64,000 nt of DNA from Alphaproteobacteria bacterium (lineage in GTDB: Bacteria; Pseudomonadota; Alphaproteobacteria; SP197). Within the stretch, counting starts at the first letter, position 1. Every line of letters begins with the position of its first letter. The notes below the pieces were generated by a model. That model saw only the letters and a program-made list of their open reading frames with translations, made no database searches and had not been told where the DNA came from. The position numbers and the translations under genes are program-made. Positions 3,001-40,884 of this stretch are shown here, piece after piece. The stretch is taken from NCBI GenBank assembly GCA_965200495.1, contig CBDAUG010000001.1, forward strand, positions 2,324,885 to 2,388,884, given 5' to 3'.

Positions 3001-4700
3001 ACGTGCTGTGCGCCTTCATGCCGTGGAACGGCTACAACTTCGAGGATTCGATCCTGATTTCCGAACGCATCGTCAGGGACGATGTCTTCACCTCGATTCA
3101 CATCGAGGAGTTCGAAGTCGTGGCCCGCGACACCAAGCTTGGACCCGAGGAGATCACACGCGACATTCCCAATGCCGGTGACGAGGCGTTGCGCCATCTC
3201 GACGAGGCGGGCATCGTCTACATCGGCGCCGAGGTCGAGGCCGACGACATTCTTGTCGGCAAGATCACCCCGAAGGGCGAGAGCCCGACAACGCCTGAAG
3301 AGAAACTGCTGCGCGCCATCTTCGGCGAAAAGTCCTCGGATGTGCGCGACACCTCGCTTCGCGTGCCTCCCGGGGGACAGGGAACGGTGGTCGAGGTGCG
3401 GGTCTTTTCGCGTGCAAGCTACGATACCGACCAGCGCGCCGAGACCATTCACAGCGCCGAAGTCGACCGCCTCGAGCAGAACCGGGCCGACGAGCACTCG
3501 ATTATCGAGCGAACGGTTCAGGCGCGCCTCCTTGATTTGCTCGACGGCGGCACCGTCAAGCGCGGACCCAAGGGTGTGGCGCGCGGCAGTGTGCTTGACC
3601 GCGAGCGTCTGGACTCCCTCACCCACGGCCAGAGATGGCAGATCGTCGTCGCCGACCGTGACACCATGGAGGCTGTCGAGGAACTCAAGGCGCGCTATGA
3701 CGACAGGATGGCGGATCTCGAGAGACTGCACCGGGGCAGCCTGGAGAAACTCGAGGCGAGCGACGAATTGCAACCTGGTGTGCTCAAGATGGTCAAGATC
3801 TTTGTCGCCGTGAAACGCAAGCTCCAGGCGGGCGACAAGATGGCGGGCCGGCACGGCAACAAGGGGGTCATTTCCCGCATCGTGCCTATCGAGGACATGC
3901 CCTATCTTCAGGATGGGACGCCGGTCGACATCGTGCTCAATCCGCTCGGTGTGCCCAGTCGCATGAATGTCGGGCAGATTCTTGAAACCCACCTTGGCTG
4001 GGCCTGTGCCGGTATCGGCAGGAAGATTGGCCGCATGGTCGACAGCATGACCATCGAGATGCCTCTCGACGGCGACAGGGTGTCGACCCGCGACGACCTG
4101 CGCACCCTGCTCTCCGGGGTCTATGGCGAGGCTCCGGAAAGCGGCCGTTTTTCGGCGATGAAGGATACCGAGCTCATGGAGTTCGCCAACGAGCTGAGGT
4201 CGGGCATTCCCGTCTCCACTCCGGTGTTTGATGGTGCCGGAGAAAGGGAGATCACGGACATGCTCGAGCTTGCCGGCTTTTCCGCCAGCGGCCAGGAGAT
4301 CCTCATCGACGGGCGGACCGGGGAACCCTTCGACCGGCCGGTCACCGTGGGCTATCACTACATCCTGAAACTGCATCACCTCGTCGATGACAAGATTCAC
4401 GCCCGCTCGGTCGGCGCCTACAGTCTTGTCACGCAGCAGCCGCTTGGCGGCAAGGCGCAGTTCGGCGGCCAGAGATTCGGCGAGATGGAGGTGTGGGCCC
4501 TGCAGGCCTACGGTGCGGCCTACACGCTCCAGGAAGTCCTCACCGTCAAGTCGGACGATGTCGCCGGCCGTACGCGGATCTACGAATCCATCGTCAAGGG
4601 TGATCAGTATTTCGAGGCGGGCATTCCGGAGAGCTTCAACGTTCTGGTCAAGGAAATGCAGGCGCTCGGCCTCAATGTCGAGCTTGAACAGGCAGGCTGA
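1..4700 (+). CDS. rpoB: DNA-directed RNA polymerase beta subunit, 5' partial (reading frame open from nt 3)
   Basis: 1556-aa ORF with RpoB motifs throughout; it is followed by rpoC. It contains an expanded lineage-specific insertion (see findings). Confidence 0.97.
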
Positions 4701-9126: not shown

Positions 9127-9498
9127 ATGCCGACAGTGAACCAGCTCATCCGCAAGCCGCGCAAGCCGCGGCGGCCGCGCAACAAGGTGCCGGCCCTCGA
9201 GGCCTGTCCGCAGAAGCGCGGCGTGTGTACCCGTGTCTACACGACGACGCCCAAGAAGCCGAATTCGGCCCTGCGCAAGGTGGCGCGCGTCCGTCTGACC
9301 AACGGCTTTGAGGTCACGAGCTACATCCCGGGTGAGGGGCACAATCTGCAGGAGCATTCGGTGGTCATGATCAGGGGGGGGCGCGTCAAGGATCTGCCCG
9401 GGGTGCGCTACCATATCATTCGCGGCACTCTCGATACCCAGGGTATTGCCGCGCGCCGCCAGAGCCGTTCCAAGTACGGCGCCAAGCGCCCCAGGTAG
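9127..9498 (+). CDS. rpsL: 30S ribosomal protein S12
   Basis: The product begins [13 protein letters not shown]. The internal Met of ORF 9091-9498 was taken as the start. Confidence 0.95.
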
Positions 9499-34451: not shown

Positions 34452-34504
34452 CCGCCGCCGAGGGTCATGACACGCGTGTCCTGGTGACGGTCACCGGCCC
34501 AGGT

Positions 34505-34570
34505 TCGAAGATATCTGTGATTGACTCACACAACTATATAAAAACATTAGAAAATAATTCCCTGGCCCGG
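34505..34570. other. AT-rich island-junction segment with a TGTGA-N5-TCACA dyad and a TATAAA box
   Basis: gatatctgtgattgactcacacaactatataaaaacattagaaaataattcc within 65% GC DNA. Confidence 0.5.
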
Positions 34571-34615
34571 ATCGTGCATGCGCGCCTTTCCACGGCGCAC
34601 ATGAGAAAAGGCGGC

Positions 34616-34790
34616 TAATCCTCCGCATGGAGGTCGGCCACCAGGTCGTCGATGTCGCCGACCGTGACCTGTTCGCCCCGCCGCGCGGCCTCCTGCCTGG
34701 TCTTCTCGTCGATGCGGGCGCGAACGACGGTGAGCATGCCCCGATCCTCCGAATTGAACCACAATGCAGCCCGGCTGCATGACGGATATC
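34616..34790 (-). pseudogene. dinJ/relB-family antitoxin remnant (internally deleted copy of the 45431-45688 gene, no toxin partner)
   Basis: About 88% identical to 45432-45733, with a roughly 135-bp internal deletion at a gcggcctcc microhomology. It encodes MLTVVRARIDEKTRQEAARRGEQVTVGDIDDLVADLHAED. Confidence 0.75.
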
Positions 34791-34841
34791 CACGTCGCGA
34801 CGTTCCGGCGCCGGCGCGGCGGGAATCGTGCAGGGGGCAGG

Positions 34842-35126
34842 TCAGGCCGCTGCGAACTTGCGGACCGCGACCGGATCGCGGCCCTGCCGGACGTGCCAGA
34901 GGTCGTACTGCATCTGCTGTGTGAGCCAGCTCTCCGGGCTGCCGCCGAATGCCTCCGACAGCCGGATCGCCATTTCGGGCGAGATGCCGAGACGGCCGTT
35001 GAGCAGCATCGACAGCGTGTTGCGCGAGACCGCGAGCCCCTTGGCGGCCTCGGTCACGGTCAGTCCCAGGGGGTCCAGGCACTGACGCCGGATGAAGGCG
35101 CCGGGATGGGGCGGATCGTGCATCAG
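34842..35126 (-). CDS. higA: HigA antitoxin (HTH XRE)
   Basis: The product begins [46 protein letters not shown]. It lies downstream of higB. Confidence 0.88.
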
Positions 35127-35142
35127 CATGGGCGTTGCCTCC

Positions 35143-35421
35143 CTAATGGTAGTCCAGGTAGTCGACATCGGCGGCGTGGCCGTCCTCGAAGCGGAAGACA
35201 ACCCGCCAGTTGGCGCTGACCGTCACCGCCCAGTAGCCGGCATACTCACCCCTCAGGCGGTGCAGCCGGAAGCCGGGCAGGTCCATGTCGTCCGGGCTTG
35301 CGGACGCATTCAGGCGAACCAAGATGTCGCGCACTCGCTCGCGGTGCTCCGGGCGGATGCGGCGCTCGTCGCCGCGTTCCATGAGGCGCCTGAGCGCCCG
35401 GCTCCTGAAGCTCTGTATCAT
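35143..35421 (-). CDS. higB: HigB toxin (RelE/ParE superfamily)
   Basis: The product begins [26 protein letters not shown]. The sequence [43 protein letters not shown] closely matches HigB. Confidence 0.9.
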
Positions 35422-35730
35422 GGCCGACCGTAAAGCGCCCTATGGCGGTTGTCAAAGTGCCGCGACGGTCCGGCGTTCGCAATCATGATGACGCCGCAAT
35501 GTCGATGCGCTCGCCCCAGGGCTTGCGGTTCCAGTCGCCGGGGACATCTCCGTAGTTCACCCAGATCACGTCGAATGCGGGCTCGGCGTCGGGATGGCGC
35601 GAGCATTCCATGTCGGTGAGAGAGAGGCAGACGCCCGGCCGGACATCGTGTTCCTCCAGCACGGCTTGGCAAGAGGCTGTGCGAAAAAACTCCCCTGCGT
35701 TGGAACCCGCGCAATATCAAGGAGTTGCGC

Positions 35731-36153
35731 TCAAAGAAAAATCACCCCCGAAACAGCAAACCTATCCGAATACCATGGCCCGGCGAACCCGTCCGGCCCC
35801 AGCCCCGCGCAATACCCCGCCGCCACGATGCGGCGGTGGAGGTCCGCCATGCCCGTCTCGATGAACCGCCTCGGCTGGAACCAGCTGCCGTCCTTGGCGA
35901 TCCCGACTGTGCGGACCTTGCCCGCCCAGGCGTCAACGTCCTGGAACAGTTGGCGGTGGATCGACTTCAGGTTGGCAAGATCAAAGTCGCCCGCCGGGAC
36001 GGGCTCAAGAAGGCGCTGGGCGACCAACTCGCGCTCGGCTGCCTCCAGTTCTGGCGCGTCCCGGATGCCCAGCCTGTTGCGGAGAACGGTGTAGAGCACA
36101 TCGCTGGTCTTGCGGTCTGTGCGCAGCTTAACGATCCATGTCGGTGAAGACAT
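35731..36153 (-). pseudogene. Fic/DOC-family protein, truncated before the HPFx(D/E)GNGR active-site motif
   Basis: It aligns with E. coli Fic through IHRQLFQDVDAWAGKVRTVGI and AAGYCAGL, then reaches a stop. The downstream reading frames are scrambled. Confidence 0.6.
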
Positions 36154-36769
36154 CGCGGAACGTCTCTTCCATGGCCGAGCGCACCGCATCGCCGTCAACC
36201 TCGACACCGAGTGCCGCCAGGGAGGTCACGCCATGAGATCTGACGCCGCATGGCACGATACGTGAATAGGGAGCGAGATCAGGGGCGCGGTTGATGCTGA
36301 CGCCATGAAACGTCACCCAGCGGCGCACGCGTATGCCGATGGCCGCGATCTTGTTCTCCCGGCCGCAGGAGTCGACCACCCAGACCCCGATACGGTCCGC
36401 TCGGCACACACCTTCAACCCCGAAACGCGCCAGCGTCCGGATCAACCAGGTTTCAAGGTCGGCGACAAAGGCATGCAGATCGCGTCCCCGGCGGGCGAGA
36501 TCGAGCATGACGTAGGCAATCTGCTGACCTGGCCCATGCCATGTATAGCGACCGCCGCGCCCGGCAGGAAAGACCGGGATGTCTCCGGCATCGATGAGCT
36601 CGTCCTTGCGCGCGCTCGTTCCCGCCGTGAAGAGGCTCGGGTGTTCGAGCAGCCACACCGTTTCCGGCGCCTCGCCGGCGCGAATGCCGGCAGCCGTCTC
36701 TTCCATGGCCCGCACCGCATCCGGATACGCCACCGGCCGTTCACTCACCTTCCAGCAAACAGATGTCAT
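36128..36769 (-). CDS. lipB: lipoyl(octanoyl) transferase
   Basis: 213 aa with a LipB-like pattern (WLLEHPSLFTAG...GRGGRYTWHGPGQ...KIAAIGIRV). Confidence 0.88.
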   Translation of the reverse strand: MTSVCWKVSERPVAYPDAVRAMEETAAGIRAGEAPETVWLLEHPSLFTAGTSARKDELIDAGDIPVFPAGRGGRYTWHGPGQQIAYVMLDLARRGRDLHAFVADLETWLIRTLARFGVEGVCRADRIGVWVVDSCGRENKIAAIGIRVRRWVTFHGVSINRAPDLAPYSRIVPCGVRSHGVTSLAALGVEVDGDAVRSAMEETFRDVFTDMDR

Positions 36770-37151
36770 GGAAGCCAGCCTAGCAGATCACCCCCATAAC
36801 CCGGAACCCGGCCTCTCCTGGCGCTCCTGAACCGCCGCCGACAATGCGACGACTGATGGTCCGGTCGGGTGGTGATCGAAGGACGTTTCGTCCTGTTTTG
36901 CCGGGATTCGTGGCTGCGGGGCCGACCACGCCCCGGTGCCGGCCGATTCGTTTTCGCGATCATGTGCCCTGGCGGTGGCGCCCGCCCGGATGCTCATCAC
37001 TCAGGGCTGGGCCAGGACGGCGATGGCTGCGCTACGGCAGAGCCGCAGCCGACGGCGAGACTCTCCGCTTCGCGGCGGCTGGCGAAGACCACTTGAGAGC
37101 GCTATGGTATCGAGGCTGCCCCGGTGCCCCTATAGCCATGGAGAGAACGTC

Positions 37152-37930
37152 ATGAACGTGACAATATTGCCCCCAATGCCATTTGCCCCCCCCGGAATTC
37201 TGGCAAACGGCCGCTGACGCTCGTCGCCGCCACGCTGGCGGTACTGACACTGGCTGCCCCCACCTTCGCCCAGACGCCGACGGCTGAAATGCGCAATTTT
37301 CTCATTGGTGAATGCGCTGGAAGTACATGCGCAGAGAACATCACGGCCTGTCCGCGCCAGATCAGTGTGAGGTTACGCCCACCTCCGACGACGGACACAG
37401 AAGTGCGCCTCATCGCCCTGACGCGCTCCGGCCACAACCGGCTCTACGACTATGGTGTGCCAGTCTATGTGGACGAAACAGACACCCGGATGATCCGTTC
37501 CAGCACGATGGTGACCATACCGGCCGGAGACTCAAGTTTTTGGCCCTCTAACATCTGCTGGAGAAACGACCACCTCGTCACCGGCGACAGCGAGGTCGAG
37601 ATCGTCATCGTCGGCGGGGCGGGCTACCGGGTGGACCCGGCGCGAAACAGCCTGGTCTTCACCATCATCGAGGATGATGACTGCGCCAATCCGGGCAATC
37701 ACACGGTCTACGTGCCGGTGGGCGGCAACATGAACAATACCTGCGTCTGCCGGACCCGTGCGGTGGCGGCGGAACTGTATCCGGGATCGGTTCAGCAGGC
37801 CGACGGTCAGGACTGGGATCACACCATCGATGATTACTACGTCACGATCAACGGCAACCGCTCCCTGCGCTCGTCCACGGACTATTCGAACTACTGTCCG
37901 GAATCGCCCTATCAGGGGCCGGGGACCTGA
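37152..37930 (+). CDS. cysteine-rich secreted protein of unknown function; the SD+ATG (37152) is out of frame with the signal peptide and mature region across a poly-C(8) tract
   Basis: The continuous frame from 37136 encodes KRPLTLVAATLAVLTLAAPTFA/QTP (a Sec signal) plus a 213-aa Cys-rich lower-GC body (the tracked ORF 37289-37930). The only ATG with an SD (GGAGA-8nt-ATG 37152) is in the +1 frame upstream of C8. Confidence 0.5.
37186..37193 (+). repeat. homopolymeric C(8) tract inside the 5' coding region (candidate slipped-strand phase-variation site)
   Basis: tttgCCCCCCCCggaatt. A tract of 9 or 6 C would fuse ATG 37152 to the signal-peptide frame. Confidence 0.6.
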
Positions 37931-37948
37931 GCGCAGACCAGGTCTGAC

Positions 37949-37978
37949 GCAAGGGGCGACCGGTGGGCCGCCCCTTGC
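37949..37978 (+). terminator. GC-rich hairpin after the secreted-protein gene (gcaaggggcg-N10-cgccccttgc), no U tract
   Basis: 10-bp perfect stem 19 nt after the stop codon. Confidence 0.35.
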
Positions 37979-38382
37979 CTGTCGACCAGGGCCTTGCCAC
38001 GCGACGGTGATCGTGTCGTTTGGCGGTCAGGATCGCGTACCGGGATCGTCAGCGGTGCCTGTACGGACACCGCCGGTAGCGGCTTTCCGGACCGGTGTGG
38101 CGCGGCTGGCAGTCAGGAAAAACCAGCCGGGGTGAACCTCAGGGTCATCCCATGCTCGTTCTTCTTGACAGCGAACCATCCCCCGGCCCGGAAGCCTGGA
38201 AAACGAATCGCCTTTCAAGCCCGAAAGAAGCCGTTTCGGCGCTCGAACGCCCATCGCTGACGGTAACGCCTTGATGCCTCATCCGGCTGCCAAAGGGCAC
38301 GTTCACCGTAGCGTGGGAAAGTCCTGACCTCGTCTTGCGGCGTCTTGGAGGATTGGCTATAGGTGCGGATCTGCCCGTCAAT

Positions 38383-38469
38383 GCGGTCGTGGCGGAATTG
38401 GTAGACGCGCAGCGTTGAGGGCGCTGTGGGCGAGAGCCCGTGGAAGTTCGAGTCTTCTCGACCGCACCA
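38383..38469 (+). tRNA. tRNA-Leu (anticodon GAG), 87 nt, CCA encoded
   Basis: Acceptor stem gcggtcg/cgaccgc. The D-arm GGCGGAATTGGTAGACGCG is identical to E. coli tRNA-Leu. Anticodon stem cagcg/cgctg with loop ttGAGgg. Long variable arm. T-loop TTCGAGT. 3' ACCA. Confidence 0.9.
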
Positions 38470-38500
38470 TTTCAGCACGCGCACCCAGGGGACGTGTGCC

Positions 38501-39876
38501 ATGACCCATGCATCATTCCCGGCAACCCAGGATCTCCACGGGCTGAATCCCGCCCTCCTTCGGGCGATCATCGATGCTGTTGATGCTGAGGATCTCGTGC
38601 GTCTCGAAGCGCTGGTGGTTCCCCTGCATGCTGCCGACAAGGCGGATCTCCTCGAACAGATGGGCGCCGCACAGCGCCGCATCGTGATCGAGGCTCTTGG
38701 TCAGGAGATCGACGCCGAGATCCTTCCCGATCTCGATGACGCTGTTCTCGGCGACATACGCAAGGAACTCGGCCTTGAGACCTTTGGCCGGCTGGTGGGC
38801 AGGCTCAATTCGGATGATGCCGTCGACGTTGTTTCCGACCTTGACGACACAGTCCGCCGGGAAGTGCTCTGGATGCGGTACCGGCGCCCGAACGCCGGGT
38901 GGTGGAGCAGGGACTCACCTTTCCTGAAGACAGCGCCGGACGTCTCATGCGCCGCGATGTCGTGGCGCTGCCGGTGTTCTGGAACGTCGGTCAGACCATC
39001 GACCATCTGAGAGGTGCAGGCGATCTCCCCGATGAGTTCTATGCCGTCCTTGTCGTCGATCCCGGTCACCGGCCCCTGGGTGTCATCGCCCTGGCAACGC
39101 TGATTCGCAGTGACCGTCAGGTTCGACTGACCTCACTCGTCGAGGGTGATCCCCTGACCGTGAAGGCCGACACCGACCAGGAAGAGGTTTCCTGGCTCTT
39201 CCAGCAGTACGGGCTTTCCGAGGTGGCTGTCGTCGACGACAACGACCGGTTGCTGGGCACCATCACCTTCGACGACATGGTGGACGTGTTGAGCGAGGAA
39301 TCCGAGGAGGATGTGCTGCGCCTTGCCGGCGTGGCCGGCACCGACCTCAATCAGGGGGTCATCGACACCACGCGCAAGCGCTTCTGGTGGCTCTTCATCA
39401 ACCTTGGGACCGCCGTCATGGCGTCCATGGTCATCGGCATCTTCGAAGGCACGATCAGGGAAATCGTTGCCCTTGCGGTCCTCATGCCTATCGTCGCCTC
39501 GATGGGGGGCAATGCCGGGACCCAGACGATGACGGTGGCGGTGCGGGCCCTGGCGACACGCGATCTCACCCGGGCCAATGGCGTGCGGGTGATTGCCAAG
39601 GAGATTCTGGTCGGCGCCCTGAACGGCATCCTGTTTGCCTCCATCACCGGGCTGGTCGCCTGGGTATGGTTCCAGAGTCCCATGCTCGGCGCCGTCATCG
39701 CCATGGCCATGGTGGCCAACCTCGCAGTCGCCGGATTCATCGGCGCCGCCATACCTCTGGTGCTCGACAGGTTCGGTATCGATCCCGCAGTTGCCGCGAG
39801 CATCCTGCTCACCACGGTGACGGATATCGTGGGCTTTTTCGTCTTCCTCGCCCTGGGAGTCATGTTCCTGATCTGA
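38501..39876 (+). pseudogene. mgtE: magnesium transporter MgtE, interrupted by a -1 frameshift near 38868
   Basis: The N-terminal domain lies in the frame of ORF 38426-39010. The CBS pair and TM domain lie in ORF 38899-39876. The expected ...RREVLDAVPAPERRVVEQGLTFPEDSAGRLM reads across the two frames. Confidence 0.8.
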
Positions 39877-39927
39877 GGCGCCGGGGAGCGCGTGTCAGGT
39901 GGGCCCGGTCACGTATCGGATGCGGCG

Positions 39928-40884
39928 TCAGGTGTTCTGGAGGATACGGGCGAAAACGTTGCGGTCGATGTTGCCGCCCGACAGCACGAGAACGACCTTA
40001 CGTCCGGCCATGCGGTCGCGCTCACGCAAGAGGGCTGCCAGGGGTGCGGCGCCGGCACCCTCGGCCACGTTGTGGGTGTCGGTAAAGTAATGCCGCATGG
40101 CAGCAGCGATATCGTCCTCGCTCGTGGTGACGATGCGCTCGGCGCCTGCATTGATCTCGCCTACCGCATCATCGTGAGGCACACGCACCGCCATGCCGTC
40201 GGCGATGGTGTCGCAATGGTTGGTGGTCACGGGTGCGCCGGTGGCAAAGGAACGGGCATAGCAGGGGGCGTTGTCGGCCACCACGCCAACCACGGCGGCG
40301 CCGGACGCCAACGCATCGCGCGCCCTCAGGGTGCCGCACAGGCCCGAGCCCAGACCGATCGGCACATAGACCGTGTCGATGTCGTCGTGACGTCGGAAGA
40401 TCTCGAGGCCGTAGCTTGCGACACCGCAGACAAGGTCGTCGTGGAACGAAGCCAGCATGTGAAGTCCGTGGCGCGCGGCAAGATCCCGCGCGTGAACCAG
40501 GGCCTCCTGAAAATCGCGTCCATGTTCGATCAATGTCGCACCAAGTGCGCACATCGCTCTGTTTTTTTCGACAGAATTTCCGTAAGGCACGACGATGGTT
40601 GCCGGGATGCCCGAGAGACCGGCGGCAAGGGCGACACTCTGGCCGTGGTTGCCGCGGGTTGCCGCGATGACCCCTGGAACGTCGCCTTCGCGCGCCTTGA
40701 GCCTCTCCATGTAGACGAGCCCGCCGCGAATCTTGAAGGCTCCGATCCGGGTGTGGTTTTCGTGCTTGACCCAGACTTCGGCGCCGCTGCGCCGACTGAG
40801 CAGCGGCCAGTGGTGAAGAGGGGTTTCGTCAACGTGGCGGCGCACCAGCCGCTCGGCCGATAACAGGACATCAAGAGAGGTCAT
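39928..40884 (-). CDS. PLP-dependent serine/threonine dehydratase family protein
   Basis: 318 aa. The PLP-lysine region reads ...ENHTRIGAFKIRGG. It has the fold-type II pattern. Confidence 0.8.
   Translation of the reverse strand: MTSLDVLLSAERLVRRHVDETPLHHWPLLSRRSGAEVWVKHENHTRIGAFKIRGGLVYMERLKAREGDVPGVIAATRGNHGQSVALAAGLSGIPATIVVPYGNSVEKNRAMCALGATLIEHGRDFQEALVHARDLAARHGLHMLASFHDDLVCGVASYGLEIFRRHDDIDTVYVPIGLGSGLCGTLRARDALASGAAVVGVVADNAPCYARSFATGAPVTTNHCDTIADGMAVRVPHDDAVGEINAGAERIVTTSEDDIAAAMRHYFTDTHNVAEGAGAAPLAALLRERDRMAGRKVVLVLSGGNIDRNVFARILQNT

Follow-up and report, generated by a model that had tools for sequence, protein, structure and literature searches.

The window considered here, a stretch of 64,000 nucleotides (nt) from Alphaproteobacteria bacterium (GTDB lineage Bacteria; Pseudomonadota; Alphaproteobacteria; SP197; GenBank assembly GCA_965200495.1, contig CBDAUG010000001.1, positions 2,324,885 to 2,388,884 of the forward strand), contains at positions 37136-37930 a gene for a small, cysteine-rich, predicted secreted protein, whose start codon and signal peptide lie in different reading frames, separated by a tract of eight cytosines (C8). 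This gene is probably a contingency locus, in which slipped-strand changes in the length of the poly-C tract connect the start codon to the signal peptide or disconnect it, the copy in the window being disconnected. The architecture of a phase-variable secreted protein had been proposed in an original prediction made from the window; to judge from the sequences now compared, it is strongly supported by the tracts of homologous genes, by differences in tract length and by the mixture of phases, not by the window alone. In the proposed mechanism the poly-C tract would separate the ribosome-binding site and ATG from the signal peptide throughout the family, and slipped-strand mispairing during replication would alter its length. 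One length class in three would join the ATG to the signal peptide and mature protein, and the other two would give a short peptide. Each gene would flip stochastically and reversibly between ON and OFF; the C8 copy of the window would be OFF, and the gain of one C or the loss of two would turn it ON. The family would consist of small secreted proteins shared by horizontal transfer among distantly related sponge symbionts. We infer frequent and reversible slippage in living populations, export of the protein with an action on or outside the cell surface, and a benefit that comes from varying what host phagocytic cells or phages meet.

The gene, encoded on the plus strand, is preceded by the Shine-Dalgarno (SD)-like sequence GGAGA (37140-37144), read directly in the sequence and located 7 nt 5' of an ATG (37152-37154). 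Sites of the GGAG/AGGA type are spaced likewise from the ATG in homologous loci, and ATG 37152 is the equivalent of the start position of the homologues, where an ATG is followed by a short leader and then by the tract. The frame of this ATG, which represents the OFF phase and translates into the 21 codons MNVTILPPMPFAPPGILANGR before a stop (37152-37217), passes through the C8 tract (37186-37193), the proposed slippage switch, which begins 34 nt after the ATG, and ends at TGA 37215-37217. A second frame is open from 37136, being preceded by TAG 37133-37135, to TGA 37928-37930; it contains no ATG, GTG or TTG before 37289, only ATT at 37166, ATT at 37181 and CTG from 37214 onward. This frame without a start codon encodes a putative signal peptide, NSGKRPLTLVAATLAVLTLAAPTFA (37196-37270), with predicted cleavage at TFA/QTP. 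The assignment was made by sequence inspection (K/R n-region, hydrophobic core, small residues at -3 and -1), and the segment aligns with the signal peptides of full-length homologues (AAPVAAQ/VPT). The mature protein that follows (37271-37930 with the stop codon) comprises 219 amino acids (aa) with 8 Cys and ends in YCPESPYQGPGT; it consists of a variable N-terminal Cys segment, a Calx-beta-like β-sandwich (approximately 37352-37666) and a conserved Cys-rich C-terminal module. With one additional C (C9) a single precursor of 259 aa including the signal peptide results, with two C fewer (C6) one of 258 aa, and with C8 the 21-codon peptide. The original prediction had described the SD sequence, the ATG frame running through the tract, the open frame lacking a start codon, the Sec signal followed by QTP and the effect of gaining one C or losing two, and all of these are present as described; its mature region of 213 aa with nine Cys needs correction to the values given above, the ninth Cys lying in the untranslated part of the open frame. 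The genome's own annotation (P0001) is limited to a 213-aa open reading frame (ORF) from ATG 37289, without the signal peptide.

A search of the protein collection yielded 26 relatives, all of them hypothetical or without a name and without a Pfam domain. Several full-length homologues contain a run of prolines just 5' of the signal peptide, and in many others the called start falls within or beyond the signal peptide, because a poly-C tract is present at the DNA level. Distant members obtained in a profile search of 1.84 billion representatives again showed either poly-Pro before the signal peptide or calls starting inside it. A scan of one genome per species provided 11 loci, from metagenome-assembled genomes (MAGs) labelled Gammaproteobacteria, Thiotrichales, Paracoccaceae and Aestuariivita. 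In total, 15 family loci including the window carry a poly-C tract (C8-C20) that follows an SD-preceded ATG by a few codons and leads straight into the hydrophobic core of the signal peptide. The original prediction had left two matters to the homologues: whether they carry homopolymeric tracts, and whether they initiate at non-ATG codons. They have a poly-C tract of their own at the same place, and they start at an SD-preceded ATG 5' of it, non-ATG starts not being seen. The tract is absent only in L011, a distant paralog; for L007 and L010 the contig does not include the 5' end of the gene.

Relative to the SD and ATG, the signal peptide is in frame (ON) in L002 (C15), L005 (C14), L006 (C9), L008 (C12), L012 (C11), L013 (C15), L014 (C19) and L017 (C9), and out of frame (OFF) in the window (C8), L001 (C20), L003 (C10), L004 (C8), L009 (C14), L015 (C11, from a genome of 46% guanine plus cytosine (GC)) and L016 (C11); the consensus lengths of long tracts may err by one base, and individual ON/OFF calls are soft. 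Three of these loci (L012, L013 and L014) were picked via full-length proteins and one (L015) via a truncated call, the set unbiased for phase being the window and L001-L009. The nine copies in this set (window, L001-L006, L008 and L009) comprise four in frame and five out of frame. Across the family, many copies are in frame, and the out-of-frame ones are shifted either way. A scan of viral contigs and two scans of Joint Genome Institute (JGI) metagenomes (by protein profile, and by DNA pattern for more tract alleles) found nothing. Regarding individual loci, one Aestuariivita gene (proteins P0002 and P0221 versus P0220) reads MKFLYPPPPLEIL with the C14 of L005 and MKFLYSPLEIL in other assemblies; the latter form could be an allele with a short or interrupted tract, i.e. 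locked ON. A C11 run in L002 (5895-5905) lies 14 nt after an SD and ATG; no signal-peptide-like segment follows it, and the downstream frame has 107 codons.

The most direct evidence for length variation comes from near-identical copies. One complete Paracoccaceae genome contains a 1.4-kb segment twice, as L003 and L004, and across alignment columns 143-1395 (promoter region, gene and hairpin; approximately 1,250 nt) their sole difference is C10 versus C8. A third paralog in the same genome (L006) is 86.5% identical and has C9, in frame. C8, C9, C10 and C11 alleles of one gene were found at an identity of at least 99.4%, with 0-5 substitutions per 800 nt; these four alleles come from three pipelines, namely a HiFi chromosome (L003 with C10, L004 with C8), a JGI assembly (L016 with C11) and a European Nucleotide Archive (ENA) megahit assembly (L017 with C9). 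At the family level the tract is, as far as these alignments indicate, the fastest-changing site and hypermutable relative to its surroundings. Protein clusters at 90% identity likewise contain differing products of one gene from different assemblies: the product of the SD-preceded ATG, an alternative upstream-frame product with two or three prolines, or truncated calls. The 83 family gene calls divide into 20 that read across the tract, 6 in the alternative upstream frame, 44 truncated at the N terminus (some of which may be partial genes at contig ends) and 13 with a full signal peptide but no poly-Pro. A further C13 tract is located just 3' of the family gene in L006 (4814-4826). At this site L003 and L004 (alignment columns 1180-1215) contain ATGAAGCGGTTGTTGAACACCTCCCCCTC, with no long ORF following; it looks like the start of another putative tract-bearing gene with the tract interrupted.

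The C8 run is not surprising in itself. A first-order Markov model gives approximately 1.25 C runs of at least 8 per 64 kb, and the run as a statistical surprise was rejected on this ground. Chance does not account for where the tract lies or for its conservation. In approximately 170 kb of fetched DNA, 17 of the 20 C or G tracts of at least 8 nt are located 13-34 nt after an SD and ATG, and all but one of these (16 of 17) lie directly 5' of a signal-peptide-like segment. Codon usage points in the same direction: the 14 intact genes of the window encode Pro with 51% CCG and 34% CCC, and none of their 16 Pro-Pro dicodons is CCC-CCC. Because CCC-CCC dicodons are otherwise absent and the tract lengths are not multiples of three, selection acts on the DNA rather than on proline. 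A coding requirement for poly-proline was ruled out by these lengths together with the CCC-only runs and the many out-of-frame copies.

The same 5' module is also found on other proteins. Next to the family member in L012, a gene with C9 (4012-4020) has the same layout of SD and ATG, short leader, poly-C tract and signal peptide, and in L014 the module is present on two genes, one with C12 (1805-1816) and one with C22 (4611-4632, minus strand). In L013 a G11 run (3998-4008) lies within the signal peptide of the next gene, which encodes a weakly Calx-beta-like protein of 175 aa. These neighbouring proteins are predicted to be secreted and are mostly Cys-rich; the family profile detected nothing in them beyond the signal peptides (E above 0.03). 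A second architecture occurs in some family members, in which the tract is followed by a short linker and a second ATG (…GSA-MKR…), as seen in L013 (3001-3080), in L014 (3001-3080 and 1780-1860) and in the proteins P0229, P0234, P0045 and P0196; in L014 the second ATG has a GGAGG-like sequence 5' of it. The window copy has G-K-R where these members have M-K-R and is thus wholly dependent on the upstream ATG.

Apart from its phase, the window copy is intact. It retains 61 of the 62 positions conserved at 90% or more, its ratio of nonsynonymous to synonymous substitution rates (dN/dS) is 0.22-0.44, its GC content at third codon positions (GC3) is 0.74, and its downstream frame of 244 codons is intact, without a second lesion. 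We conclude that the copy is OFF in the assembled sequence but, judged by these features, otherwise not decayed. Several points weigh against a contingency locus. Chance would produce a C8 run about once per window; C8 is the shortest tract in the family; the leader of the window copy has 11 codons, versus 4-7 in relatives; and the second ATG that some relatives carry after the tract is missing. The locus is known from one assembly, in which C8 is the consensus length (look-ups of the exact proteins P0001, P0189 and the LipB of the window gave no record), and the softness of individual phase calls has already been mentioned. The neighbourhood shows gene decay (a frameshift in mgtE near 38855-38870 and a partial Fic domain), and in members with the second architecture the tract may sit in a short upstream frame that tunes initiation rather than gating it. 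The window copy could therefore switch rarely or be locked OFF. The corresponding alternative is a decaying or locked-OFF pseudogene, in which a copy acquired with a phase-variable tract would have shortened to C8, would now be permanently out of frame and would be heading for loss. The short tract, the atypically long leader and the missing second ATG fit this, as do the frameshift of the adjacent mgtE, whose relatives at 86-89% identity are intact (457 aa), the partial Fic domain nearby and the paralog P0189, a 179-aa fragment. We nevertheless regard it as unlikely. The conserved positions, the gene-like GC3 and dN/dS and the absence of a second lesion speak against decay, and since C8 is the length in L004 too, whose only difference from the C10 twin is in the tract, C8 falls within the range that is still changing.

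That the true tract is C9 (or C6) and the gene an ordinary in-frame ORF, the C8 being an error of consensus or assembly, seems to us distinctly unlikely. Homopolymers are the main class of insertion and deletion error in long-read consensus sequences, a second frameshift is located 1.7 kb away in mgtE, and in a mixed population the consensus length would be arbitrary anyway. The sole other G or C run of at least 8 nt in the window, a G8 within rpsL (9374-9381), serves as a control of homopolymer accuracy; it is in frame, and rpoB, rpoC, fusA, tuf and the ribosomal-protein genes are intact, with approximately 45 kb of core genes free of frame breaks, which makes a systematic homopolymer error unlikely. 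The break in mgtE is not at a long homopolymer, and out-of-frame family members are present in Illumina-based and HiFi-based assemblies alike. Even if true, such an error would change the state of this copy only and not the nature of the locus. Recoding, by a -1 ribosomal frameshift on C_CCC_CCC or by RNA-polymerase slippage, with the tract setting a fixed low expression, is in our judgement very improbable. A formal X_XXY_YYZ heptamer (GC C_CCC_CCC GGA) is present in the ATG frame, and a -1 slip on it would give exactly the fused protein; slippage on proline codons is a known phenomenon, as is polymerase slippage at homopolymers that rescues frameshifted genes of endosymbionts. The downstream sequence, however, folds no better than shuffled controls (z 0.64 and 0.15), the members are in frame or out of frame either way, so that no single programmed shift fits them, and the tract lengths differ at the DNA level. 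Programmed frameshifting as a designed mechanism was rejected for want of a stimulatory structure and in view of the mixed phases; some leaky expression in the OFF phase is possible. Hardly any credence can be given to a non-canonical start in the open frame that would make the tract irrelevant. The codons for it are present (ATT 37166, ATT 37181 and CTG 37214), but none has an SD-like site 5' of it, CTG 37214 would strip the positively charged n-region from the signal peptide, and all homologues with upstream DNA begin at an SD and ATG before the tract. The family-level conclusion, that a tract-gated contingency locus recurs among these genes, is unchanged by any of these alternatives.

No match for the family was found in Pfam, NCBIfam, PHROGs or PDB sequences, and none of 21 family members matched the Calx-beta model PF03160 at E ≤10. 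The family profile, in turn, matches the Calx-beta repeats of giant proteins; the match to P0047 has an E value of 4e-21 over 8 stretches. P0047 has nine Pfam Calx-beta stretches, and the best-matched one scores 35 bits on PF03160 (cut-off 27). A relationship to bona fide Calx-beta repeats was thus found at the profile level, and a match to PF03160 at gathering score was not. The core was found to have a Calx-beta β-sandwich fold and is best described as a remote or divergent relative that does not itself reach the Pfam model. The family has conserved acidic runs (EDDD, DETD), and the core is followed by the conserved Cys-rich C-terminal module, NGNRSLRS...YCPESPYQGPG. In contrast to Calx-beta (PF03160) proteins, the members of the family are small single-domain proteins with an added Cys-rich module that is unmatched in the four collections named above. 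Calx-beta has been reported to be enriched among the 'eukaryotic-like' domains of sponge microbiomes (PMC9531527).

Regarding the genomic context, the gene is the only one on an insert of approximately 1.5 kb (36828-38327) between lipB and tRNA-Leu, which blastn showed to be absent from two close relatives, L018 and L019. Both of these loci have the gene order lipB, tRNA-Leu(GAG), mgtE, and they match the window on the lipB side (36147-36827) and on the tRNA-Leu/mgtE side (38328-39930) at 84-89% identity. L018 has 90 bp in place of the 1,500 bp of the window, and L019 has a different, transposase-associated insert; tblastn detected no family member at either locus. Because L018 and L019 lack the family gene at the same site, it came in by insertion, at a position that varies. 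The insert has neither an integrase ORF nor meaningful flanking repeats (such as a direct repeat of the tRNA 3' end), and no RNA family was found in it, the only one being the adjacent tRNA. The original prediction had placed the gene, described as visibly lower in GC content than its surroundings, in an island 450 bp upstream of tRNA-Leu. The tRNA, tRNA-Leu(GAG), is indeed downstream (38383-38469), and the island holds in so far as synteny reveals a single-gene insert; it lacks the integrase, the repeats and the deviating GC content (61.0% in the gene and 63.2% in the insert, versus 63.5% in the window). A classical tRNA-integrase island was rejected because integrase and repeats are lacking and because the insert is 5' of the tRNA, the wrong side for such an island. 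Low GC content was dismissed as a sign of foreign origin. A shared mobile cassette was also rejected, the flanks of the insert being unlike other family loci and unlike the rest of the window. Neither a consensus sigma-70 promoter nor an intrinsic terminator was found around the gene. A GC-rich hairpin (AAGGGGCG / CGCCCCTT; 37951-37976, plus strand), read in the sequence 21 nt past the stop codon, was not called by the consensus terminator scan; it is possibly a terminator without a T tail, and a comparable hairpin is present 3' of the gene in L003 and L004.

The neighbouring genes show further irregularities. The mgtE gene (38501-39876) is split into two frames, the break being away from any long homopolymer: the MgtE_N frame ends in ...DDTVRREVL, and the CBS and MgtE domains are in the other frame from ...LDAVPAPERRVVEQGL. 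The genome annotation contains a fragment of 304 aa (P0254) where the relatives have the full-length protein, and the break may be either a pseudogene or an assembly indel. In a second indel relative to L018, approximately 1.65 kb of the window (34498-36146) replaces a 247-bp acylphosphatase region of that relative; the genes concerned are one for a HigB-like toxin (35143-35421) and an ORF that carries only half a Fic domain (35731-36207), both on the minus strand. Outside the window, the same contig of 2,454,644 bp carries the second family member, P0189, which is 85% identical to the window gene over 178 aa and belongs to the 90%-identity cluster of a Paracoccaceae gene, its fragment status being that of the annotation.

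The tract-bearing loci come from Paracoccaceae, Aestuariivita, Thiotrichales/Beggiatoales and several gammaproteobacterial lineages. Four of the MAGs concerned (CAR2_bin_10, CAR2_bin_14, CAR2_bin_8 and CAR4_bin_12) are symbionts of the sponge Carteriospongia foliascens (Robbins et al. 2021, supplementary file 9, PMC8163846); the file assigns them to Aestuariivita, Beggiatoales, UBA10353 and UBA11654, and their sequencing was done on Illumina. Four more loci originate from ERZ25067984, a single ENA assembly, where their contigs differ widely in GC content. Regarding the host genome of the window, its MgtE is 86-89% identical to that of relatives and at most 72% identical to the nearest hits with a name, which are Rhodospirillaceae and Rhodospirillales MAGs. 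The synonymous divergence between the window gene and the copies in Gammaproteobacteria is only 0.5-1.4, which across classes fits horizontal spread and not vertical descent.

Among systems already described, pilC of Neisseria, with a poly-G tract in the 5' end that encodes the signal peptide and with translational phase variation, is the closest parallel in layout. As in pilC-type genes, the start codon is closely followed by a G/C homopolymer, within or ahead of the signal-peptide region, changes in its length shift the frame and toggle an exported protein, and paralogs of one genome are in different phases (here L003 with C10 OFF, L004 with C8 OFF and L006 with C9 ON). In the genes described here, by contrast, the coding strand carries poly-C, the organisms are not pathogens but uncultured symbionts from the sea, the proteins belong to an unrelated, uncharacterised family, one gene occurs together with its tract across bacterial classes in one sponge microbiome, and switching is deduced from comparison. 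Contingency loci with poly-G/C and other simple sequence repeats are also known from Campylobacter, Helicobacter and Haemophilus. Simple-sequence-repeat contingency loci have been described in Bartonella as well (PMC11466379). With these the present loci share 5' repeats on many genes for surface or secreted proteins (a 'phasome'), tracts typically of at least 8 nt and a mixture of ON and OFF states; those systems are defined by measured switching and by selection from host immunity or phages, whereas here the evidence is comparative and comes from a sponge microbiome. A different parallel is offered by insect endosymbionts, in which frameshifted genes are rescued at homopolymers by polymerase slippage. 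Common to both are homopolymer-linked frame breaks in host-associated bacteria. The tracts of the insect endosymbionts, however, are poly(A), scattered over the genes of AT-rich genomes as by-products of mutational bias, while those reported here are poly-C, are found at one defined site before signal peptides, are conserved in the family and vary in length in the DNA. In the literature searched, repeat-mediated phase variation in sponge symbionts was not found described, which is not proof of absence. The mechanism as such is classical; the novelty lies in the protein family, in its distribution over bacterial classes within a sponge microbiome and in the repeated occurrence of the 5' module on unrelated genes for secreted proteins.

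For genome annotation, the consequence is that gene callers truncate or mis-start more than half of the family members, so that the family is systematically mis-annotated in MAG catalogues. For the biology of the symbionts the finding may have wider meaning. Phase variation by repeat tracts is a hallmark of bacteria that constantly alter what host immunity or phages see, and to our knowledge nearly all work on it concerns pathogens. Sponge symbionts need to escape the phagocytic cells of the host and are heavily exposed to phages; the question of how they handle the proteins that they display or secrete is usually framed by 'eukaryotic-like' domains such as ankyrin, fibronectin III, cadherin and Calx-beta. 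We offer as a tentative suggestion, one that we hold with less than even confidence, that the unit of SD and ATG, 4-11 codons, poly-C tract and signal peptide is a community-wide expression switch in the sponge holobiont that moves horizontally with genes. It would cover Rhodospirillales-like bacteria, Rhodobacterales, Thiotrichales/Beggiatoales and other Gammaproteobacteria, together with several unrelated, mostly Cys-rich secreted proteins, and in the variants with a second SD and ATG the short upstream frame would provide a translational volume control. A commensal or mutualist microbiome would then possess a pathogen-style 'phasome' facing host cells or phages. A Calx-beta-like secreted family that is common to the bacterial classes of one sponge microbiome and gated by apparently hypermutable tracts provides a testable handle on this question: spectra of tract length can be read from existing metagenomic reads, compared across sponge individuals, tissues and seawater relatives, and linked to expression.

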